Positions 17,841 through 50,835 of a DNA stretch of 64,000 nucleotides are shown here, in pieces. Source of the DNA: a virus (taxonomy: Duplodnaviria; Caudoviricetes); IMG/VR virus record IMGVR_UViG_3300029305_005387. The stretch is one strand, 5' to 3'. The notes under the pieces were generated by a model, which made no database searches, was not told the origin of the DNA, and worked only from the letters and a program-made list of their open reading frames with translations. The translations under genes were made by a program, and so were the position numbers. Numbering within the stretch: the stretch's first letter is position 1; each line of letters opens with the position of its first letter.

Positions 17841-20654
17841 ATGAGATTAGAAATTCTGGATATTGACAGATTAATTGCTGTCAATAAACTCCAAGAGGTA
17901 ACATCTCCTCGTTTATTTTCAAATAAGATGATGTTTGATCCTCAAGGTATTTTATCAAATGAGATTTTTGGTATTTCTAAGAGTGATCGTAGATCTACTT
18001 TCGCTTATATCAATTTAAGACGACATTTCATTCATCCTCATATCTATAATAAAGTTCTTAAAGGAATTTTTAGAGGTATAATCTACATTGTATCAGGACA
18101 AAAATATTATTCTGTAAAGAACGGATTGTTAGTCGAGGATCCTGATAATGGATGGACAGGACTGGAAAATCTTTATAATCATTGGAATGAAATTGATTGG
18201 AGTAAATCTCAATCAGCAAATAAGACGAATAAAAAGGTTTTGATGAATATTACTCGTGATCAGGTATTCATTGATAAAATGCTGGTTTGTCCTCCAGCAT
18301 ATCGTGATGTAATGATTGCTGGCACAGTTGACTCATCTGACCACGTAAATGAATTAAATGATCTTTATGTAAGATTAATTCGTTCAGTAGCTCTATTAAG
18401 CGAGGGTGGACTATTTGCTCGTACTCAATATGCTACACAGACTAAGATTCAAGATACTCTTGTAGAAATTATGGAATATTTTAAGAAACAGATTTCTCGT
18501 AAACAAGGTCTTATCAGAAAGAATCTTATTGGTAAATCTGTAGACTATGGTGTACGTGCAGTTATTTCTGCTCCTTCGTATAATAATGAACGAATTGAAG
18601 ACAATATCATTGATATTGAACATACTGCAGTACCAATTTCAATGTGTTGTTCGATGTTTTATCCTTTTATCGAATCATATTTACGTAATTTCTTTACACG
18701 AGAAATTATTAATGATCCGAACTTGATCACATTCTATGATATTGAAAATAAAAGAAGTTTTACTGCTCAAATTAAAGATCCTGATATTCAATTTTCTGAA
18801 AAGAATATAAGAAAGATGATAAACGATTATTGTTTAAATCCGGATAATAGATTCAGGGTTCTTTCAGTAGATGTTATTATTCCACAAGCTAGTGGAAATA
18901 AAACTGTAAAAGCTTCTCTTGTAATGAAGGGTAAACAAATTCTTCCTAATGATAGTACAACAATGTTGAATAGAGCTATGACTATTACAGATGTTTTATA
19001 TTTAGCATGTGTTGATGCTTGTGAAAAACGTCATGTAATGGTGTCTCGATATCCAGTAGGTACTGACAAAGGTATTTACTTTAATAAGATTAGAGTTCAA
19101 TCAACAATCAATCATATTAAATTAGTATTCAATGGAAAAGAATATCCATATTACCCAGATATTGATTTCAAGATCGATCAGAATAAAGTTGGAGTTCAAT
19201 TTATCGATACCCTTGTACTGTCAAATTCACATTGTGATGGTATGGGTGCAGATTATGATGGTGACGTGTTATCAGCAAGAGGTATTTGGTCTGATGAAGC
19301 AAATATGGAAGCTGAAGAAATCATGAATCGTAAAATGTCTGCATTAAACATTACTGGTGCGAATAGTAAAGTAGTAGCTAAAGAAGTATTTAACTCATTA
19401 TATGAGTTAACAAAGATTGGTGAAAAACCTGTAGCAAAAGTTGTTAGACCTTTAGATGCTGAAATGTATCTAAAAATGAGTCCTTCTGATATTACACGTA
19501 CTTTCTTAGCAGATACATTTGCAGATATGGTAGATTGCACAGTTAAAAATGTAGCTGGTAAAAATGCACCAAGATATAGAACTTGGGATAAAATTACAAT
19601 TCCTGCTAAACATTTTTATGAAGGACAAAAAGAAATTGAAACTACTATAGGTAGATACATTGCTAACAAATTTATGTTTGAAGGATCAAATATTATTGAA
19701 CAAATTGGTTTCGTTAATGAAACTATGAATAAAAAAGTTGTTGGTAATATTGATACTAAAGTAGGTCAATTATATTTGGAAGATAATATTAATAGAACGC
19801 AATTCAATATGTATCTTGACAGAAGAGATACTCTCGGTTATTGGTTGAATGGTATGCTTGCACATACTATTTCTGAAAAGATGACTAAACCATTACCAGA
19901 AATTGAGAAAAAGAAAGCTGAACTTTGTAAGAAATATGAGAAAGAATTAGCTGAAGGTAATATCGATGTAATGACTCAGATTAGTGATGAATTAGTTGCT
20001 TATGCTAAAGAATTACTTAAAGGAGATCCCGGCATGGATCTATATGATTCTGGTGACCTTGATTTTGGTAATAACTATAAAAACAATTCTATTATCAAGG
20101 GTGCAGTAATGAATAAAATCACTGGTGAGTTTGACTTTATTGATACATCATTTATGGATGGTATTAATGTTAAAGATATTCCTGCTCATGCTAATTCAAT
20201 TCTTGCTTCTCAGTATCCTGCATCTATTGCTACAGCTGATGCTGGTTATATGGGTAAAAAGTTATTAGCATTACTTCAGATGATGGAAGTTGATGAACCT
20301 GGAACTGATTGTGGCACAAAGAATCTCATTCCTGTAAATATTACTAAACATAATATGAATGACATGCTTTATACTTATATCGAAGAAGGATCTCAACTGA
20401 AGATGTTAACACGTGAAAACATTGGATCCTATGTTGGTAAGAGTGTAATGATGAGATCTCCAATGTCTTGTAAGAATGAAAAGATTTGTTCAAAGTGTGC
20501 TGGACAATTATTCTATTTACTTGATGCTAAACATGCAGGATTGTTTGCAACTCAGATTTCACATGCTGCTCTTAACCTTGGATTGAAAGCTAAACACAAT
20601 AGCTTAGTAGAACTATTTACTTTAAACCCAGATGTGCTTATTGAAGATCTATAA
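17841..20654 (+). CDS. Phage multisubunit DNA-directed RNA polymerase, beta'-like subunit
   Basis: GILSNEIFG, PPAYRD, GLIRKNLIGKSVDYGVRAVI, catalytic ADYDGD, bridge-helix TADAGY, DCGT and RSPMSC...CSKC zinc site. Confidence 0.93.
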   Translation: MRLEILDIDRLIAVNKLQEVTSPRLFSNKMMFDPQGILSNEIFGISKSDRRSTFAYINLRRHFIHPHIYNKVLKGIFRGIIYIVSGQKYYSVKNGLLVEDPDNGWTGLENLYNHWNEIDWSKSQSANKTNKKVLMNITRDQVFIDKMLVCPPAYRDVMIAGTVDSSDHVNELNDLYVRLIRSVALLSEGGLFARTQYATQTKIQDTLVEIMEYFKKQISRKQGLIRKNLIGKSVDYGVRAVISAPSYNNERIEDNIIDIEHTAVPISMCCSMFYPFIESYLRNFFTREIINDPNLITFYDIENKRSFTAQIKDPDIQFSEKNIRKMINDYCLNPDNRFRVLSVDVIIPQASGNKTVKASLVMKGKQILPNDSTTMLNRAMTITDVLYLACVDACEKRHVMVSRYPVGTDKGIYFNKIRVQSTINHIKLVFNGKEYPYYPDIDFKIDQNKVGVQFIDTLVLSNSHCDGMGADYDGDVLSARGIWSDEANMEAEEIMNRKMSALNITGANSKVVAKEVFNSLYELTKIGEKPVAKVVRPLDAEMYLKMSPSDITRTFLADTFADMVDCTVKNVAGKNAPRYRTWDKITIPAKHFYEGQKEIETTIGRYIANKFMFEGSNIIEQIGFVNETMNKKVVGNIDTKVGQLYLEDNINRTQFNMYLDRRDTLGYWLNGMLAHTISEKMTKPLPEIEKKKAELCKKYEKELAEGNIDVMTQISDELVAYAKELLKGDPGMDLYDSGDLDFGNNYKNNSIIKGAVMNKITGEFDFIDTSFMDGINVKDIPAHANSILASQYPASIATADAGYMGKKLLALLQMMEVDEPGTDCGTKNLIPVNITKHNMNDMLYTYIEEGSQLKMLTRENIGSYVGKSVMMRSPMSCKNEKICSKCAGQLFYLLDAKHAGLFATQISHAALNLGLKAKHNSLVELFTLNPDVLIEDL

Positions 20655-42855: not shown

Positions 42856-44877
42856 ATGTCAGATAATACAAACCTAATGCGTGAACTTTATATCCTTGAG
42901 GATGAAAACAATCCTTATGGGTCTAGATCTAAAGGTATATGGCCACCTACTATATTAGATCAGGTATATGATAACTTATCTCCTACAAATAAAACACTGA
43001 GAACTATTTTAGAAGAATTAAGACATGATATTCTTACTGGGGGAATTGGCAATATTACATTTCCAGTCACAACTGTTAATGGAATGAATGGAGATGTAAT
43101 TATTAATGCGAAACATTTAGGTTTAGAAAATGTTGATAATACATCTGATAATGAAAAACCATTATCAAAACCTCAACGTCTTGCAGTGATGGAACTTCTA
43201 AAAGGATTCAAATATGAAGTAGATTTAAGTGATTTATATGACCATATTAGAGACTCAAATAATCCTCATGGAATAACTTTTGAACACATTAATCGAAATA
43301 ATGAGATTGGAAATTATATCTCTCAATATATCTTGAAACATGAAAATGATCAAACATCTCATCAAGATATTAGAAATTTAATCAAGGATATTGATTATTC
43401 TGTTAAAAATATTCACAATGATGTTGAAGAAAGAATTTCTATTGCTCTTAGAATTTTGGATCAACATTATGCAGATGAAGGAGCACATTCACCTTTATTT
43501 GATAAAAAAGAAGATGTATTGAATAAAGTATTTGATTTTGAAAATGTTGATCATAAACGATATCCATCCGTAAGAGCAGTTGTAGATTATGTAACATCCG
43601 TAGCTAATACTTTAAGATCTGAGATCACTACAATAGAAAACTGGATAGATGATATTATCGTTATTAGATCAAGAGATGATTTGCCATCTGCAAGTATTAA
43701 GACTTACCGTAAAGCATATTTCATTCGTAGAGGATTAAATAATAATGATGAGATTGCCATTTGTCGAATAAATCCTGATAATACAACTTATTCTTGGGAT
43801 ATTTCTACATTTGATACGTATGCAAAATTTGATGAATCTTATTTTATTAACACAGATGATGGTTTATCTCTAAATACAACTAATATAGCTGAAACATTAA
43901 TCAATGAAGGAAATATGAATAAAGGTATTTCTGAAATTGTTAATTCAGTATTATTTGAATCCACTGCAATAATCAATTTCAATATTAATGAACTAGGAGA
44001 ATTAACTGTTGAATATGATGAAAGATATCCTGATCCTATTCTATATATTGATGAAAATGGTGAATTGATACTAGAAGCAGATGATGGAACTCTTTCTGAA
44101 TTCTTGGTTGAAAATTGTAACTTCGAAATTGTAAATGGACGATTAATTCTTACAACTGAAGATATTGATATTGTAAATATTGGACATGGAAAGATTGCTA
44201 ATTACTATACGAAGGATGAAATCGATGAATTTTCATTCATTAATAGTATTCAGATATTATCAGGAACAGAGAATGGAACCATTCGATATTATATAAATAA
44301 CGATATATCTACAATGTCTCCTGATATTAAAGTTACTGGTATTAATAAACTCGCATTTCTTGAAAAGGTAACTGAAAATGAAATAGAAGACAACTCAGTC
44401 CATTCTCAACACATTCTAAACAGGGCAATTCAATATCGTCATATGGGAGAAAAGGCAGTATCTGCTGAAAATATGAGAGGATCTTACAATACTATATTTG
44501 GCAATGTTGAAGATTCTCAAGGTAACACGGTTAGAGAGATTCCTTTGACATATCTTGTAGAAGTTTTTCAGCCATATATTAAAGATTTTATTGCTCAGTA
44601 TTTAACATCTTCTCCTGAAATGAAGTCAATACTAAAGGATATCTATGAAGAAATAATTGCTGAGGAAATCATGAGTGAAGCTCCTATTACATTAACCATT
44701 CAAGATGGTTCATTAATAGCAACTTATGATGAGACTCAGTATAGTGAACCTGATATTGAAATTGATAAAGACGGGTATTTGATTTTAAATTCATCAGATA
44801 CTGCAATTGATCAATACTTGGAAAGTATTTTCTTTAATATAGTTGATTCAACGTTAGTAATGACCGTAAATGAATAA
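42856..44877 (+). CDS. Tail-fibre-like virion protein
   Basis: VTTVNGMNGDV, LGLENVDNTSDNEKPLS, NPHGIT motifs of phage fibres. Shares N-terminal blocks with 54358..58875. Confidence 0.75.
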   Translation: MSDNTNLMRELYILEDENNPYGSRSKGIWPPTILDQVYDNLSPTNKTLRTILEELRHDILTGGIGNITFPVTTVNGMNGDVIINAKHLGLENVDNTSDNEKPLSKPQRLAVMELLKGFKYEVDLSDLYDHIRDSNNPHGITFEHINRNNEIGNYISQYILKHENDQTSHQDIRNLIKDIDYSVKNIHNDVEERISIALRILDQHYADEGAHSPLFDKKEDVLNKVFDFENVDHKRYPSVRAVVDYVTSVANTLRSEITTIENWIDDIIVIRSRDDLPSASIKTYRKAYFIRRGLNNNDEIAICRINPDNTTYSWDISTFDTYAKFDESYFINTDDGLSLNTTNIAETLINEGNMNKGISEIVNSVLFESTAIINFNINELGELTVEYDERYPDPILYIDENGELILEADDGTLSEFLVENCNFEIVNGRLILTTEDIDIVNIGHGKIANYYTKDEIDEFSFINSIQILSGTENGTIRYYINNDISTMSPDIKVTGINKLAFLEKVTENEIEDNSVHSQHILNRAIQYRHMGEKAVSAENMRGSYNTIFGNVEDSQGNTVREIPLTYLVEVFQPYIKDFIAQYLTSSPEMKSILKDIYEEIIAEEIMSEAPITLTIQDGSLIATYDETQYSEPDIEIDKDGYLILNSSDTAIDQYLESIFFNIVDSTLVMTVNE

Positions 44878-44880
44878 TGG

Positions 44881-44911
44881 TATGGAGAGGCTTATCATAA
44901 GCCTCTCCATA
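44881..44911. terminator. Intrinsic terminator hairpin
   Basis: tatggagaggcttat-c-ataagcctctccata. Confidence 0.75.
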
Positions 44912-44954
44912 CTTTACTATTTTATTAATTATTCTCATTTTGGAGGGATTAAAT

Positions 44955-47261
44955 ATGCAACATTTTAAGTTAGAAAAAGATTGTGTATTGTACAAAACAC
45001 AATTTGAAAAGTATATGCTTGATATATTTGGAGACCACCGTCTGGATAGATATTCTTTAGATTTAGATGGAATTTTATTTAGAATTAAATATATGACTAA
45101 GCATAAAAGAGATCTTGATAAGATTCCAGAATTACAAGAGAAATTTACTAATATTGCAATCCAGTTAAGAAAATGCTTTGGTGAATTTCTCTTTAACTTC
45201 TTAGCTCAGATTATAACAATTCCTGAACCATTTAAACTTGACAATATTGTTGATATTCTTGCTCATGATGTGAAGATGGATCCGAATTATGTAAAGTTTA
45301 AAATGATATTAATTTCAGATAGTAAAGAATATATTGAATATGTAGATTCAGCTTTTCCAGATAATGAAGTATTTAATATGTTTCCAAACGAATACTTTAG
45401 ATTTTATACTGATTCATACAATGATGGAATTGCTAAAGCATATCCAGAACTATTTGAAAATAAACATCAGGACAAGATTGGTGTTGGAGCTGATGGAGAT
45501 GTATTCTGCCACAACTTTACTTTTCAGACAGGAGAACGTTGTTCACTGAACTGTACGTATTGTGTTCCAGATGGTACCAAAGTTACATTACCAGATTATT
45601 CAATGAAAAATATTGAAGATATCCAAGTAGGTGATAAAGTATTGGCAGTAGATGAACATCATCCTGTTGGTAAAGAACATACATTACGAGAATCTGAAGT
45701 TACACATGTTTTCAAAAGGGAAACAAATGGTTATTTTAAGATATCTCATAGAGCTTTAAAAGAACCTATTTGTATTACTGGTGAGCATCCTGTAAAAACA
45801 GAGAGACGTGGATGGATACCTGTAAATATGTTAAGATCAACGGATAAAATTTTGATATCTTCAATAGATCCATATGATTTTTATTCTACGAATTTTAAAA
45901 ATCCATCATTTATAATGAATAAAATCTCAAATTCATATCATTACTATAAAACGCAATACATTGGTGGATTTAAACTTGAAAATATTAAAGAAAAATGTAC
46001 AGTGTATAATTTGGAAACAACTGAACATACTTACGCTATTGGAAGATTATTAGTTCATAATTGTTATCAGTTTAATAAATCAGAAATGAGAATGAGTTTT
46101 GAAACTGCAAAGAAGTTTATTGATAATTTATTGACTGATCAATATGGATATATTAATCAATATAATTCTCCTGCCATCATTATGGAGTTTATTGGTGGCG
46201 AACCTTTGCTTGAAATTAATCTTACAAGAAAGATTTATGAATATTTTCTTGATAGATGTTACGAATTAAATCATCCTTGGTTTACTCTTCATAGACTTTC
46301 AATATGTTCTAATGGTATGCAATATTTCGATAAAGAAGTTCAAGATTTTTTTAAAGAATATTCTTCACAAATTTCATTCAATATTTCCATTGATGGAAAT
46401 AAAGAATTACATGATGCTTGTAGAGTTCAACCAAATGGAGAAGGAAGTTATGATATTGATATATGTGCACTGAATCATTATAATAAACATTTTACACCAG
46501 AGAGAAATTCTAAGATGACTTTGGCTCCATCTAATATTTCATATCTATTTGATTCAGTCGTAAACTTTATTAACAACGGAATGACAGTTATTAATATTAA
46601 CTGCATTTTCGAAGAGGGTTGGAACCAAGAGACTGCACGAATTGAATATTATCAGTTAAAGAAATTAGCTGAGTATATATTAGAGAATGATTTAGATCAT
46701 CTTTATATAGCCATATTTAATGAACGTCAAGAAGACGTGATGCCTAAAGAACAGGATGGATCATTTTGTGGAGGTGCCGGTTCCATGCTTGCTATGAGAC
46801 CTAATGGACAGTTTTATCCATGTATTCGTTACATGCCATCTTCTGTTGGTAATAATGTAAAAGATCTTTGTATTGGAACTGTCGATACAGGTATTCATGG
46901 ACGAGAAGAAGGATCTGATATCATTAGAATGTTAGATAGAATTACACGACGTGCACAAAACAATGACATCTGTTATGAATGTCCAATTTCAAATGATTGT
47001 GCTTCTTGTTTAGCATTAGGACATACAGTATTTGGTACTCCTAATAAGAGAACAAACTTCATCTGTATCCAAATGATTGCTGAGGCGTTAGCTAATGTAT
47101 TTTACTGGAATGCATTATTAATCAAACATCCAGAATATAATCTCGATGTAAGAAAAAATAATGTTCCAGATAAATGGGCTCTCTTAGTAATAGATGAAGA
47201 AGAACTTGATTATTTGAAAAAACTTGAAGCATATGCAATGATCATAAAGATGGAAAGATAA
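44955..47261 (+). CDS. Radical SAM/SPASM peptide-maturase-like enzyme (CXXX-repeat target type) containing an intein
   Basis: After splicing it reads CSLNCTY|CYQ (CxxxCxxC). EFIGGEPLL, SNG, ISIDGNKELHDACR. SPASM cysteines FCGG...YPCIRY...CYECPISNDCASC...FIC. Confidence 0.92.
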   Translation: MQHFKLEKDCVLYKTQFEKYMLDIFGDHRLDRYSLDLDGILFRIKYMTKHKRDLDKIPELQEKFTNIAIQLRKCFGEFLFNFLAQIITIPEPFKLDNIVDILAHDVKMDPNYVKFKMILISDSKEYIEYVDSAFPDNEVFNMFPNEYFRFYTDSYNDGIAKAYPELFENKHQDKIGVGADGDVFCHNFTFQTGERCSLNCTYCVPDGTKVTLPDYSMKNIEDIQVGDKVLAVDEHHPVGKEHTLRESEVTHVFKRETNGYFKISHRALKEPICITGEHPVKTERRGWIPVNMLRSTDKILISSIDPYDFYSTNFKNPSFIMNKISNSYHYYKTQYIGGFKLENIKEKCTVYNLETTEHTYAIGRLLVHNCYQFNKSEMRMSFETAKKFIDNLLTDQYGYINQYNSPAIIMEFIGGEPLLEINLTRKIYEYFLDRCYELNHPWFTLHRLSICSNGMQYFDKEVQDFFKEYSSQISFNISIDGNKELHDACRVQPNGEGSYDIDICALNHYNKHFTPERNSKMTLAPSNISYLFDSVVNFINNGMTVININCIFEEGWNQETARIEYYQLKKLAEYILENDLDHLYIAIFNERQEDVMPKEQDGSFCGGAGSMLAMRPNGQFYPCIRYMPSSVGNNVKDLCIGTVDTGIHGREEGSDIIRMLDRITRRAQNNDICYECPISNDCASCLALGHTVFGTPNKRTNFICIQMIAEALANVFYWNALLIKHPEYNLDVRKNNVPDKWALLVIDEEELDYLKKLEAYAMIIKMER
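45561..46061 (+). mobile_element. Mini-intein (167 aa, no endonuclease) inserted in the radical SAM cluster motif
   Basis: Begins CVPDGTKV...IEDIQVGDKV, block B ITGEHP, ends VYNLETTEHTYAIGRLLVHN followed by extein Cys. Confidence 0.93.
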
Positions 47262-47266
47262 AATGA

Positions 47267-47298
47267 TACACAGGAGAGGGATTTCCCTCTCCTGTGTT
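47267..47298. terminator. Bidirectional terminator hairpin
   Basis: acacaggagaggga-tt-tccctctcctgtgt between convergent genes. Confidence 0.8.
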
Positions 47299-47318: not shown

Positions 47319-47846
47319 TTAAGCAGTTGTATCAGGTTCAGTTGTTTCTGTACCATCTTCTGCAGGTTCTTCAGATTCATTAGAATCTTCTGCACCTGCA
47401 TCGGTACCAGCGTCTTCATCTTCTGCATCCTTAGTATAAGTTACAGTAACTTCAACGCCTTCAGCTACCATATCACCAGTCAATAAAGTCTGATCAGCAG
47501 TATAACCTACGAAACTAGGAGGTGCATACGTGTATTCACCGCCAACATTGAACATTCTTTCTACAGGATCAGGAACTGTTAGATCTTCAGGACCTTCGAA
47601 TGTTACTTTAAGAGCTGCACGAGCTGCAACTACATCGATGTCATTACCAGGACCTTCTTTTTCTTCAGATGCTTCAGCTTCAGGATCTTCCATTTTAGCT
47701 ACAAGCTCAGGAACAATCTGTTTGAATTCCTCACGAGTGATCTGAATTCCAGGTACACTGTTGAAAAGATAATGCAAAGCATTAAACAATTCATTTGCTG
47801 CACCGGCAGTATCACCAGCAGCAATACATTCATTAATTTTAGCCAT
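47319..47846 (-). CDS. Acidic protein with a MucBP-like domain
   Basis: Start re-called to ATG 47846. LKVTFEG...GGEYTYAPPSFVGYTAD...GDMVAEGVEVTVTYTK. Confidence 0.65.
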   Translation of the reverse strand: MAKINECIAAGDTAGAANELFNALHYLFNSVPGIQITREEFKQIVPELVAKMEDPEAEASEEKEGPGNDIDVVAARAALKVTFEGPEDLTVPDPVERMFNVGGEYTYAPPSFVGYTADQTLLTGDMVAEGVEVTVTYTKDAEDEDAGTDAGAEDSNESEEPAEDGTETTEPDTTA

Positions 47847-47933
47847 ATTAAAGACTCCTTTCATGATTTACTTTTGTTTTATCCAGTTTATTTCCCAGGA
47901 TTAATTATCTGTAATTAGAAAATTATGAATGAA

Positions 47934-47946
47934 AACGACTATTTAA
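47934..47946 (+). promoter_or_regulatory. Late-type promoter motif AACG-N6-TAA
   Basis: aacgactatttaa, 30 nt before the GGAGG-preceded ATG 47976. Confidence 0.5.
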
Positions 47947-47975
47947 TTATTGATTTCTATCGTGGAGGTGTTAAT

Positions 47976-50225
47976 ATGAATAAAGATCTTTATTCAAATC
48001 AAGAATTCACTGAATTAAAACACCGATTAAATCAGGAAATACAGAGAAGAAGTACATTTTCTTGGTGGGATCCGCTAACAACACCATCTGTTGGAGAAGA
48101 TAAATCATCTCCAATGTCATTACCTGATATCGGTCAACGAGTTTCAGTTGATGATAAAACATATACAATCAATAATCCTTCTGAGGGATCTATTGAAAGG
48201 ACTAAAAATATTCATTATCAAAATCATGGAGATAGTCCATCAGGTGATGATAGTGAATTTATTTCAACAGTTCCAAATACATCTGCAGCTAAAATGGATG
48301 CAGATGAAATGAGAAACTTTTTGGTTGGTTTATCTAAAATAAAAGATATCAATCTTTTTTATGGTAGAGATGAAATCCCAGGTCTTGCTTATAGAGATCC
48401 ATCTGGAATAGAAGAAGTACTAACAAGTGCTGAAAAAGATAAATTACATGAATATATTGTAGGTGAATATTCAAAGAATGATCCTAATAATGGAGCTAAC
48501 GATCATTTAGACGGAAATTATCCTAGTAATATTCACGAAGTTCATTACGATATTGAAAATGGAATTGCTGTAATGAAATCCGGAGAATATGATGGAGAAG
48601 AATTAAACACCCATGATGGTTTAGGTCCTAATAATTTCTTTGATGATTATGGGGCAGAACCAGGAGATGGTGATTTTCATCCTTATAACAGAGGATATAC
48701 TCCACAAAGTAGACGAGATTGGAAAATACATAATAATCAACGTAAAACAGAAAAGGTTTATGTTACTGAAGGAGGAATACCAACTTCTTCTTTTGGACCA
48801 AATCCTAGAAATCCAGTCCAAGGTAAAGAATATAAATCTCGTCCAGTATTTAAAGGATCTCCAAGTACTTGTCAGGTTGCTTGTACTGGTCTATGTAGCG
48901 TTACTTGTGATGATCAATGTTCAGAATCTTGTTCTTCAACATGTTGGAGTCGATGTGGTAATGCTTGTACTTCTTCATGTGGTAATGCTTGCACAGGTTG
49001 TAGTACTTTATGTTATACATCTTGCAAAACTAAATGTGAAAACATTTCTGGATATGCTTGTGTAACTGCTGGAGCAAAAGCTATTAAAATAACAACATCT
49101 GGTGGCACTAATGGTGTACCTGCAAAAAATGAAATCCAAGCAGAAACATATTCATGTCAAGGATGTTCATATAGTTGTCAATTTTATCCTAATAAAAAGA
49201 CAACTTGTTGGGATGCTGGATGTATGGGTAATTGTTTTATCTCTTGTAACACAGCATGTTCAACTGCCTGTACTGGTGGTTGTATTAATAATACAGCTGA
49301 AGAAGGTACTTCATATAAAACTGGTAAAGGCAGAGGATGTTCTTCTGGATGTACATTAAACTGTATTGGAAATTGTTCTGGGACATGTGAAGGACAATGT
49401 GTGACAACTTGTTGGCATGCATGTAAAGAAACATGTACTGACAATTGTACATTCGAATGTTCTACAAATTGTGGAAGTGGTTGTGCTAGTGGATGTAAAG
49501 ATGGTTGTACAGGATGTACAGGAACTTGTGAATCTTATTGTGAAGGACAAACCGATTCAATAGGATGTACAGGTTGTAGCACAAAAGGCGGTTGTACATC
49601 TACTTGTCAGCATGGCTGTAATAAAAATTGTGTTGGTATAGGATGTAGATCAATTTGTGGTATTGAAGCTGCTGGAGCTTGTGAAGCTAATTGTAGAATC
49701 AATTGTATGAGTTCTAGTTGTTCAGCTATGTGTTCTAATCAATGTTCAGATCAATGTACAACATGTGTCAATACCTGTGGATTTGGATGTGGGTATTGTT
49801 CTTCCGTATGTTCTTCTGGTTGTGATGCTGCTTGTGAAATCACGTGTAGTGAGAAGTGTGAACATTCTTGTGAAAATAATTGTGTTCAGTCTTGTAGTGA
49901 AGAATGTGGCGGATGTTCTTCATTATGCTTCTCATGTGTTGGAATGTGTATTGGAGTTTGTAGTGTACATTGTGAAAATGGATGTACCAGTTGTTCAGTA
50001 ATGTGCGGATGGTGGTGTGATTCTTCATGTAATCAACAATGCTTTGCAAATTGTGACACTTTCTGTATATCTGATTGCTCTGGTTCTTGTATAACATTCT
50101 TAATGAGTAAAGCTAATACTACCATTGGACCTGAAAATAACCCTACAGCTGAAGGATATAAGTGTCCTCATCCTTCTAATAGAGAAGAGGAACGTGAATC
50201 ATTTATTATTAGGAAGGATGAATAA
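47976..50225 (+). CDS. Giant CxxxC-repeat cysteine-rich protein, putative radical SAM substrate
   Basis: Start re-called to ATG 47976 (GGAGG SD). ~300-aa Cys-free N-terminal region, then ~407 aa with about 88 Cys mostly spaced CxxxC. Confidence 0.88.
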   Translation: MNKDLYSNQEFTELKHRLNQEIQRRSTFSWWDPLTTPSVGEDKSSPMSLPDIGQRVSVDDKTYTINNPSEGSIERTKNIHYQNHGDSPSGDDSEFISTVPNTSAAKMDADEMRNFLVGLSKIKDINLFYGRDEIPGLAYRDPSGIEEVLTSAEKDKLHEYIVGEYSKNDPNNGANDHLDGNYPSNIHEVHYDIENGIAVMKSGEYDGEELNTHDGLGPNNFFDDYGAEPGDGDFHPYNRGYTPQSRRDWKIHNNQRKTEKVYVTEGGIPTSSFGPNPRNPVQGKEYKSRPVFKGSPSTCQVACTGLCSVTCDDQCSESCSSTCWSRCGNACTSSCGNACTGCSTLCYTSCKTKCENISGYACVTAGAKAIKITTSGGTNGVPAKNEIQAETYSCQGCSYSCQFYPNKKTTCWDAGCMGNCFISCNTACSTACTGGCINNTAEEGTSYKTGKGRGCSSGCTLNCIGNCSGTCEGQCVTTCWHACKETCTDNCTFECSTNCGSGCASGCKDGCTGCTGTCESYCEGQTDSIGCTGCSTKGGCTSTCQHGCNKNCVGIGCRSICGIEAAGACEANCRINCMSSSCSAMCSNQCSDQCTTCVNTCGFGCGYCSSVCSSGCDAACEITCSEKCEHSCENNCVQSCSEECGGCSSLCFSCVGMCIGVCSVHCENGCTSCSVMCGWWCDSSCNQQCFANCDTFCISDCSGSCITFLMSKANTTIGPENNPTAEGYKCPHPSNREEERESFIIRKDE
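48870..50090 (+). repeat. Protein-level CxxxC/CxxC repeat array
   Basis: For example CQVACTGLCSVTCDDQCSESCSSTCWSRC. TGT recurs with 12-nt periodicity while the spacer codons are diverged. Confidence 0.9.
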
Positions 50226-50227
50226 AT

Positions 50228-50494
50228 ATGGGAAGAATAAGTGAAGTAAAATATATACAAGTTGATCCAATTGATTATGATGTACATGAAGCTGCTCAAC
50301 ACTATTTTCATTCTAATGTAATTCCGATTCATGAAATGTTTTATGTTGGATATGAAGAATATGAATTAAAACAAAATTCTATTCGTAATAACATCACTAG
50401 AGATAATAGGGACGATAGTCTAAAATTGAATACGTCTACATTTGGGATATCGATAAAAAATAATCAAGTCATTCTGGTAATCGATAAAGCATAA
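50228..50494 (+). CDS. Small hypothetical protein coupled to the Cys-rich gene
   Basis: 88-aa ORF starting 2 nt after the upstream stop, AAGGA SD. Confidence 0.7.
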   Translation: MGRISEVKYIQVDPIDYDVHEAAQHYFHSNVIPIHEMFYVGYEEYELKQNSIRNNITRDNRDDSLKLNTSTFGISIKNNQVILVIDKA

Positions 50495-50497
50495 CAT

Positions 50498-50530
50498 TTA
50501 AGAGAGGAGCTATATAGCTCCTCTCTTAAT
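50498..50530. terminator. Bidirectional terminator hairpin
   Basis: ttaagagaggagcta-ta-tagctcctctcttaa. Confidence 0.8.
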
Positions 50531-50535
50531 CATCT

Positions 50536-50835
50536 TTACATCATTTCATATACTTGAATTGAATTTCCGGAAACTTCATATCCATCATAATTCCAGACAT
50601 ATTGAGAAAATCTAAAATGTTCAGGAACAAACTCATTTGTGATTCTGTATTTGATAGCTTCAATTTTAGAAGTAATCGGAATAAGAGATTCTTCAAGCTT
50701 CTCAAATTTATTAGGATCATCTGCTACCTGTGTTAATACTCTCGTACGGATTGTTTCCTTTGTTAGTAATTCAGATAATTCTCTAGCAAGTTCATCAGGA
50801 ATTGTAAAATTTCCTCGTAATACTTGATTGATCAT
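50536..50835 (-). CDS. Small helical protein, candidate CXXX-repeat modification system accessory protein
   Basis: 99 aa with GAGGAGG SD. Helical hairpin (FEKLEESL) ending in WNYD plus a beta strand, similar in size and layout to the accessory protein as recalled. Confidence 0.5.
   Translation of the reverse strand: MINQVLRGNFTIPDELARELSELLTKETIRTRVLTQVADDPNKFEKLEESLIPITSKIEAIKYRITNEFVPEHFRFSQYVWNYDGYEVSGNSIQVYEMM

Follow-up and report, generated by a model that had tools for sequence, protein, structure and literature searches.

A gene in a 64,000-nucleotide stretch of viral DNA (IMG/VR virus record IMGVR_UViG_3300029305_005387; Duplodnaviria, Caudoviricetes), here called the window, encodes a 749-amino-acid (aa) protein with a long array of tandem Cys-X-X-X (CXXX) repeats, hereafter the Cys protein. 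A nearby gene encodes a radical S-adenosylmethionine (radical SAM) enzyme whose best-matching family is dedicated to CXXX-repeat targets. Judging from their sequences, the Cys protein is very probably the substrate of this enzyme. Thioether formation as the chemistry of the array, argued by analogy with related enzymes, has about an even chance of being right, and the gene context makes it slightly better than even that the protein is a virion component. Taken as a whole, the explanation that we favor, an uncleaved, tail-region virion protein stapled by the radical SAM enzyme, is likewise a little better than an even bet. The window belongs to a jumbo phage, as its marks include a multisubunit RNA polymerase beta subunit, several PHROG "virion structural proteins" and a UvsX-like recombinase. 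The genes of the proposed system are as follows.

47976..50225, plus strand, stop codon included: CXXX-repeat protein gene, 749 aa, called from its open reading frame (ORF), ribosome-binding site (RBS) and a start common to homologs
44955..47261, plus strand: radical SAM/SPASM maturase, CXXX-repeat target family, with a TIGR04115 match and Hint/intein Pfam matches
45561-46061: mini-intein in the radical SAM enzyme, 167 aa, between the second and third Cys of CxxxCxxC
50536..50835, minus strand: 99-aa protein, probable distant TIGR04116 homolog, linked by hhalign via intermediates

The longest ORF containing the Cys-protein gene runs from 47925 to 50225 (plus strand). We set the length at 749 aa because the ATG at 47976 is preceded by GGAGGT and matches the start of every homolog, all of which begin there with the consensus M-N-x-x-L-Y-S-N-x-E-F. 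Pfam gave no match on the whole protein. It contains 89 Cys, of which 88 lie within an array of 407 residues; none occurs in aa 1-298, and the lone C730 is found solely in the window copy. An earlier reading, made by a model from the DNA letters without database searches (the sequence-only reading), had described a Cys-free N-domain, three Cys blocks of 16, 10 and 62 residues and a short tail. Residue counts bear out each of these parts, and both linkers that it quoted are present (aa 363-393 and aa 437-454). The blocks hold 16 Cys (aa 299-362), 3+7 Cys (aa 394-401 and 411-436) and 18+44 Cys (aa 455-522 and 531-705). On this layout, the block counted as 62 is two units, of 18 and 44, parted by a linker at aa 523-530. 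The parts of the protein, all on the plus strand, are listed below.

47976..48350: N-terminal module, aa 1-125, with helix 8-24 (LK..h..Eh.RR) and helix 109-122; AlphaFold2 (AF2) predicted local distance difference test score (pLDDT) of 60-86
48351..48869: insert, Gly/Pro/Asp/Asn-rich, aa 126-298, ending in the pre-array motif FG.NPRNP ... G..s.C
48870..49061: Cys block 1, aa 299-362, 16 Cys, opening with C..AC[TS]GLC..TC; non-Cys majority conservation 0.76
49155..49283: Cys block 2, aa 394-436, 3+7 Cys, flanking a conserved CQFYPNKKT.CWD; non-Cys majority conservation 0.81
49338..49541: Cys block 3a, aa 455-522, 18 Cys, delimited by per-block Cys counts
49542..49565: linker, aa 523-530; conservation is lowest here (majority 0.35)
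49566..50090: Cys block 3b, aa 531-705, 44 Cys, delimited by per-block Cys counts
50091..50222: conserved 44-aa tail; AF2 pLDDT about 70-80

Tandem Cys-X-X-X repeats were the feature tested in the Cys protein, and they are present. The 88 Cys-Cys gaps include 68 of length 4, nine of length 3 and three of length 5. CxxxC occurs 68 times, compared to 18.6 +/- 3.4 (maximum, 30) in 2000 shuffles of the 407-residue array. Conversely, CC and CxC do not occur at all, against about 18.7 and 18.8 occurrences, respectively, from shuffling (minimum, 7-8). Tandem Repeats Finder detected only three 2-copy scraps of DNA-level repeat in the gene. With no real DNA repeat, the periodicity is a property of the protein sequence, and the array is old and diverged, in agreement with the earlier suggestion of an old expansion with diverged spacer codons. 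The motif that opens block 1, C..AC[TS]GLC..TC, is the array-start motif of the whole CXXX superfamily.

Searching 5.8 billion proteins yielded 172 relatives; counts given below out of 120 refer to the best 120 of these. The 120 homologs share 50-66% identity, many of them encoded on contigs 220-297 kb long. The exact 16/3/7/18/44 pattern was found in 85 of the 120, and the others deviate by at most 3 Cys or carry inteins within the sequence. Among the 89 Cys columns, 80 show no variation across an alignment of 58 close homologs, and 85 reach 90% conservation or more; block 3a is the only block whose Cys count varies among homologs (14-19). Spacer majority conservation ranges from 0.60 to 0.81, compared to 0.62-0.69 in the N-domain. 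The spacers of blocks 1 and 2 (0.76 and 0.81) exceed the conservation of the N-domain and include conserved Trp, Tyr and Phe residues, and block 2 is the most conserved part of the protein. Conservation of Cys spacing among homologs had been singled out beforehand as a point on which the idea might fail; the spacing proved to be conserved. Read from these alignments, the Cys layout is a fixed design and not a drifting repeat. Distant members (P0129, P0132, P0134 and P0170) retain the N-domain and the 16/3/7 core, but their last block is shorter. A 50%-identity representative library contained only about 20 strong clusters, which indicates that the family is tight.

The CXXX-repeat system is defined in NCBIfam/TIGRFAMs by a radical SAM enzyme (TIGR04115), an associated protein (TIGR04116, "CXXX repeat peptide modification system protein"), a second maturase domain (TIGR04119) and the target families TIGR04114 (equivalent to Pfam PF27846), TIGR04117 and TIGR04118. 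The best family for the window enzyme is TIGR04115 (rSAM_Cxxx_rpt; "radical SAM peptide maturase, CXXX-repeat target family"), with 317 bits at a cut-off of 350 over profile positions 14-359; the match starts at position 14 because the intein removes the first 13 positions. The next-best models, PapB (128 bits), CcpM (80), QhpD (68) and SCIFF (63), are all thioether formers. Intein-less orthologs, 63-82% identical, are named as members of the TIGR04115-type family by NCBI and JGI. The enzyme carries an N-terminal extension of about 195 aa, and, of its 773 aa, the TIGR04115 match extends to aa 722, too near the end for the 210-residue TIGR04119 CXXX_matur domain to fit. As the intein splits CxxxCxxC, cluster binding is impossible before splicing. 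The third cluster-ligand Cys is also the +1 extein residue.

We compiled 34 related viral loci from public assemblies and IMG/VR. A homolog of the radical SAM core lies within a few kb of a CXXX ORF in 29 of the 34, and two more are cut by contig ends. The enzyme gene is found in the same record at a distance of 60-90 kb in L009, L013 and L017, two of which are complete genomes of about 289 kb. Searches of the INPHARED cultured-phage set with the radical SAM enzyme found only uncultured fecal "Bacteriophage sp." records and 22%-identical SPN3US-type enzymes. The canonical locus, from Clostridium argentinense (L104), comprises an ATP-binding cassette (ABC) exporter, a radical SAM enzyme fused to TIGR04119 (304 bits), TIGR04116 and tandem 59-aa peptides with 10 Cys. 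Among the curated target hidden Markov models (HMMs), none matched the whole Cys protein at an E value of 0.1 or better. Pieces of it scored 20.8 bits with TIGR04117 (cut-off, 50) and 17.4 bits with TIGR04114 (cut-off, 20), below the cut-offs, and the PF27846 match was only faint. The canonical 59-aa peptide scores no better (20.9 with TIGR04117 and 12.3 with TIGR04114).

In prophages, a helper protein of about 110 aa is encoded ahead of the radical SAM enzyme. The family of the window's 99-aa protein aligns with this prophage accessory family (hhalign probability, 94.4%; E value, 9e-8), which in turn aligns with TIGR04116 members (probability, 96.9%; E value, 2e-10). The direct comparison of the 99-aa family with TIGR04116 gave 3%, which is not significant, and hmmscan gave no match. 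Through these intermediates, the 99-aa protein is probably a TIGR04116-like helper. Its gene does not travel with the radical SAM gene where the genes are dispersed (G001 and G002). The 99-aa, tail-fibre-like, radical SAM and Cys genes are neighbors in the window and are scattered over 60-160 kb in G001 and G002, which are complete relatives of about 289 kb. BLAST detected no similarity between the N-terminal extension of the radical SAM enzyme and the prophage helper proteins.

The N-domain of the Cys protein begins with a module of about 115 aa that is common to 49 unique phage and prophage CXXX proteins, which adjoin radical SAM enzymes of 34-50% identity. The shared order is a helix (L-K-x-x-h-x-x-E-h-x-R-R), a Y-D-F...P...G...E-H segment, a second helix and the array start S-S-C-R-G-A-C-T-G-L-C. 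Compared with the 49-sequence alignment of the short module, aa 5-123 gave an hhalign probability of 91% (E value, 1.1e-6), and the window array start matched that of the superfamily at 95.8%. The region from about aa 130 to 295 is missing from the short prophage forms and conserved within the jumbo-phage family, where AF2 models it as a folded, beta-rich region; phrog_6085 matches aa 282-365. AF2 confidence is moderate for aa 1-300 and 706-749. By these comparisons, the Cys-free 300 aa are a superfamily module plus a lineage-specific insert. A fold search with the AF2 full-length model found nothing above Z 3.5 among PDB representatives or better than an E value of 0.5 in BFVD, and an ESM Atlas feature search with the N-domain returned only subthreshold clusters of viral hypothetical proteins. 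The predicted complex of aa 1-200 of the enzyme with aa 1-320 of the Cys protein scored 0.01, which is evidence neither way.

In 55 ORFs the module stands at the N terminus; in 3-4 (L082, L083, L086 and L100) it follows the array, and 28 array ORFs, most of which lie beside a module-bearing ORF, lack it. Because its placement varies and no protease or exporter is encoded nearby, aa 1-125 are probably a docking or recognition domain that is retained, and not a classical cleaved leader. It may dock to the enzyme, to the helper or to the virion, or to more than one. The sequence-only reading had proposed that the N-domain is a very long leader or a virion anchor. A leader-like part survives in aa 1-125 alone; a 300-aa leader is less well supported, as the remainder is an insert and neither a protease nor an exporter was found. 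An anchor would fit the gene context. The C-terminal modules (helix ...E-h-x-R-R; L082:2733-3554, L083, L086 and L100:5658-6632) resemble a "follower" and not a leader.

The gene context that points to the virion begins directly upstream of the radical SAM gene.

42856..44877, plus strand: tail-fibre-like protein, 673 aa, motif LENVDNTSD..KPLS; PHROG tail-fibre/minor-tail matches with E values of 2e-5 to 4e-3

This protein carries the tail-fibre motif N-V-D-N-T-S-D-x-x-K-P and keeps its place in the distant locus L004 (neighbor with 29% identity; E value, 6e-34). In the window, the neighbors of the Cys gene are this tail-fibre-like gene and a gene for a PHROG "virion structural protein." Further loci were found with the Cys protein (L018-L034) or with the radical SAM enzyme (L038-L117); they are mostly from Clostridia, and the CXXX proteins in these phage and prophage loci range from 52 to about 970 aa. 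A prophage of an Anaerobacterium chartisolvens isolate (L067) has the gene order baseplate, tail fibre, CXXX protein, two small proteins, radical SAM enzyme, endolysin and holin. Its enzyme scores 458 bits with TIGR04115, above the cut-off; with PapB, the prophage ortholog scores 198 bits. In a Neglectibacter timonensis isolate (L043), the cassette is flanked by a baseplate gene on one side and another tail-fibre gene on the other. Among the phage and prophage loci examined, none was found to encode an exporter, a protease or an immunity function, and there is no transporter gene beside the window Cys gene. Host labels, taken from metagenome-assembled genomes, are Lachnospiraceae, Ruminococcus and Oscillospiraceae, which are strict anaerobes of the gut and rumen.

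According to our model, the phage-borne CXXX system would consist of the radical SAM enzyme (44955-47261) and the probable TIGR04116-like helper (50536-50835), with the Cys protein as its target, probably uncleaved. The docking module (aa 1-125) would engage the maturation machinery, the virion or both. The enzyme would convert the thiols of the array to short-range thioethers, each Cys being linked to a residue in the next spacer, and these links are more likely to be ranthionine-like than sactionine. The product would be a stapled rod or knot, insensitive to redox conditions and resistant to proteases, and would most likely sit on the virion in the tail or fibre region. What speaks for the substrate and thioether steps is the family to which the enzyme belongs, its co-occurrence with CXXX proteins, the fixed placement of the Cys and the anaerobic, reducing setting. 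Disulfides are unreliable in a strictly anaerobic, reducing setting, and CxxxC cysteines are donors in thurincin H and thuricin CD. Precedents exist for such links: in CrpA, a Cys-rich protein of 28.8 kDa, the radical SAM-SPASM enzyme CrpC forms ranthionine links that join a Cys to a residue 2-3 places further along, and the N-terminal domain of CrpA aids CrpC engagement (Dieter et al. 2026, PMC13692751); PapB links Cys to Asp or Glu a few residues on, in repeated C-X3-D motifs (PMC9413430). The wider proposal, that phages of strict anaerobes staple virion proteins of the tail region with radical SAM enzymes of their own, placing up to 88 thioether bridges on a 749-aa chain whose module serves both enzyme docking and attachment, is a possibility that we put forward tentatively.

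A number of observations weigh against the uncleaved, stapled virion protein that we favor. No target of the TIGR04115 family is known to be modified, and 88 radical SAM turnovers per chain are costly. The spacers hold no conserved acceptor residue at any position, the array has no 12-, 16- or 20-residue superperiod, and AF2 leaves it without a fold in the full-length model (pLDDT, about 25). The N-domain matched no known fibre or receptor-binding fold. For the C-terminal domain of the relatives, described below, the structure search reached at most Z 4.4 and Foldseek gave nothing better than an E value of 0.19. The 28 array ORFs without a module and the 3-4 with a C-terminal one fit neither a simple leader nor a simple anchor. 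The INPHARED cultured-phage set contained no DNA or protein match to the Cys protein, and no match for a prophage short form either. In some genomes 60-90 kb separate the Cys and radical SAM genes, and the prophage slot between tail-fibre and lysis genes also holds cargo genes.

Some of these points would suit a nonstructural product similar to a ribosomally synthesized and posttranslationally modified peptide (RiPP), acting within the infected cell or released at lysis as an antimicrobial, host-takeover factor or decoy. The dispersal of the genes in some jumbo genomes and the known cargo position ahead of the lysis genes speak for it, as does the closest catalogued system, that of C. argentinense, a peptide system in which 59-aa peptides in tandem are accompanied by an exporter and a second maturase domain. 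The phage and prophage loci examined, however, lack an exporter, a protease and an immunity gene. The protein has 749 aa and a folded, conserved N-domain, with an extra C-terminal domain in relatives, and it is conserved across a lineage of phages of about 290 kb beside tail-fibre-like and virion-protein genes. We consider such a product unlikely, although it deserves more weight than the readings that follow. It is improbable that the whole 298-aa N-domain is a true leader, cut off to free a Cys core of about 450 aa. An N-terminal recognition helix ahead of a C-terminal Cys core, with a conserved pre-array motif, is the layout that this would require, but the conserved gene sets contain no protease (a host protease could still act), there is no double-Gly or other evident cleavage motif, the module stands C-terminal to the array in L082, L083, L086 and L100, and the insert at 130-295 is conserved and predicted to be folded and beta-rich.

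The array could also be left with free thiols, as a metallothionein-like metal or Fe-S sponge or scaffold, a role that the sequence-only reading had offered as an alternative. Having 88 Cys in 407 residues is compatible with this, and the CrpA gene cluster is upregulated on pyrite, for which its authors consider metal binding possible (PMC13692751). The features of the array do not support it: CC and CxC are absent where about 19 of each are expected, and the spacing is at least 3 and mostly 4; specific spacers and Trp, Tyr and Phe are conserved; the number of Cys is fixed and does not vary as if by dosage; CxxCxxC...CP motifs of the Fe-S type do not occur in the protein; and a dedicated radical SAM enzyme of a thioether family always co-occurs. 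We therefore regard a metal sponge as very improbable. The least probable of these readings, in our judgment, is a disulfide-knotted structural protein untouched by the radical SAM enzyme, which would act elsewhere. Cys-rich extracellular proteins are usually disulfide bonded, and the two genes need not adjoin, but the hosts are strict anaerobes with a reducing cytoplasm and habitat, no thiol oxidase was seen, and the enzyme family is defined by its CXXX-repeat neighbors and tracks them over at least 100 loci.

We compared the stapled tail-region protein proposed here with systems already described. It resembles the catalogued CXXX-repeat system in its TIGR04115-family enzyme, in the Cys-X-X-X run as target and, probably, in a helper linked to TIGR04116 via intermediates. 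Unlike the canonical locus, the window has a 749-aa target with 88 array Cys and a folded 300-aa N-domain, resides in a jumbo phage and lacks an exporter; its enzyme has no TIGR04119 domain and carries both the N-terminal extension of about 195 aa and an intein, and the target falls below the cut-offs of the target HMMs. CXXX proteins of 170-650 aa in the tail modules of Clostridia phages and prophages (L018-L099) share the module of about 115 aa, the C..AC[TS]GLC motif, a TIGR04115-type enzyme and a helper of about 110 aa. These short forms have Gly/Ser-rich arrays of variable length, whereas the window array is fixed, with conserved spacers that are not Gly/Ser and three Cys-free linkers; the window protein further differs by a 165-aa insert, a conserved tail motif and an unlinked helper.

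CrpC and CrpA of Methanococcus voltae (PMC13692751) are alike in combining a radical SAM-SPASM enzyme with a Cys-rich protein substrate that has an N-terminal domain, and the Cys region of CrpA is likewise modelled by AlphaFold with low confidence. CrpC, however, belongs to TIGR04463, a model on which the window enzyme reaches 33.6 bits (cut-off, 525). CrpA has a 17-residue repeat with C-X-X-Q/D, not a period of 4, and is an archaeal, cellular protein without phage or virion context (PMC13692751). PapB, the maturase of freyrasin, is the second-best model for the window enzyme and stands here for the ranthipeptide and sactipeptide maturases. These act on peptides shorter than 60 aa, forming 3-6 links to acceptors that are defined (acidic residues or alpha-carbons); the window array shows no conserved acceptor position. 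Metallothioneins share the high Cys content; in contrast to them, the window protein is large, lacks CC and CxC, has conserved aromatic residues (W, Y and F) and is accompanied by a dedicated radical SAM enzyme.

We found no paper characterizing the CXXX-repeat family (TIGR04115, PF27846) or a Cys-rich jumbo-phage protein with a radical SAM enzyme. The system type is thus catalogued (TIGR04114-04119, PF27846), and a protein-sized phage target was not found in the literature searched. What is new is the jumbo-phage form, with its fixed 88-Cys architecture, expanded module, gene fission, optional C-terminal domain and intein load. Nearly all known radical SAM thioether chemistry concerns small secreted peptides; CrpA (28.8 kDa), reported as recently as 2026, was the first example of protein size. 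In many phages of gut anaerobes, the cassette is found again in the tail-gene region. If the protein is indeed stapled and carried on the particle, this would be a new means of virion stabilization in reducing, protease-rich habitats, a replacement for disulfides that withstands redox changes, and the first case of a virus structural protein with a RiPP-type modification. It would also define a new class of giant modified protein, and the module with block 1 would be a defined substrate for working out the uncharacterized TIGR04115 family.

The C-terminal end of the Cys protein varies among relatives. In the tail, R736, E739, S742 and F743 are nearly invariant (family consensus N-R-x-E-E-R-E-S-F). 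A further domain of about 135 aa, sometimes about 225 aa, follows the tail in 89 of the 120 homologs, 12 have other extensions there, and 19, including the window copy, end at the tail. This extra domain has a confident beta-rich fold (AF2 pLDDT, 82.7), and Pfam gave no match on the C-terminal domains of eight relatives. In three distant relatives (L004:4595-8057, L014:7965-10934 and L016:6445-9803), the gene is split into two ORFs just past the aa 523-530 linker, near aa 550. ORF1 corresponds to window aa 1 to about 555, and the C-terminal part of ORF2 corresponds to aa ~540-743. ORF2, which begins at a separate start with an RBS of its own, closes with the tail motif of the window protein; it lacks the N-module and has an extra Cys-rich N-terminal part.

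One intein family occupies at least seven different places in the array of homologs, always exactly before an array Cys, which is the +1 nucleophile. These inteins start with C-F-K/R-A-G-T-L-I-E-T, end with L-V-H-N and are about 350 aa long, some with LAGLIDADG. The sites are equivalent to window aa ~303, 307, 319, 491, 608, 647 and ~660, and the carriers are P0031, P0047, P0048, P0052, P0078, P0092, P0116, P0117, P0124, P0125 and P0126. Inteins seem to use the Cys repeat as a landing strip as they spread, and insertion at seven or more array Cys fits a conserved, needed gene.

Other CXXX proteins differ in build. On a 141-kb viral contig (L027:7575-14027), five consecutive CXXX ORFs encode 403, 335, 970, 105 and 272 aa; the 970-aa ORF has the module in mid-protein and a non-Cys domain of about 470 aa at its end. 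P0156, P0158, P0160, P0162, P0164 and P0168 (1,580-1,800 aa) have 140-165 Cys at a strict period of 4, C-terminally. A separate family, noted along with P0166 and P0171, shows C-E-x-x-C-Q-x-x repeats and a C-terminal membrane anchor.

The remaining features around the Cys gene are as follows.

50228..50494, plus strand: 88-aa gene, cotranscribed with the Cys gene and located after it in all close relatives
50498..50529, plus strand: hairpin terminator closing the unit of the Cys gene and the 88-aa gene
44879-44913 and 47268-47297: further hairpin terminators, closing two upstream units
47319-47864, minus strand: 181-aa gene between the radical SAM and Cys genes, on the opposite strand

The 181-aa gene has a subthreshold MucBP match (22.3 bits; cut-off, 23), and among the relatives only L006 has it at the same place. 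The RNA polymerase beta subunit of the window is encoded at 17841-20654 (plus strand), where phrog_2986 and phrog_2962 are fused in one 937-aa ORF.

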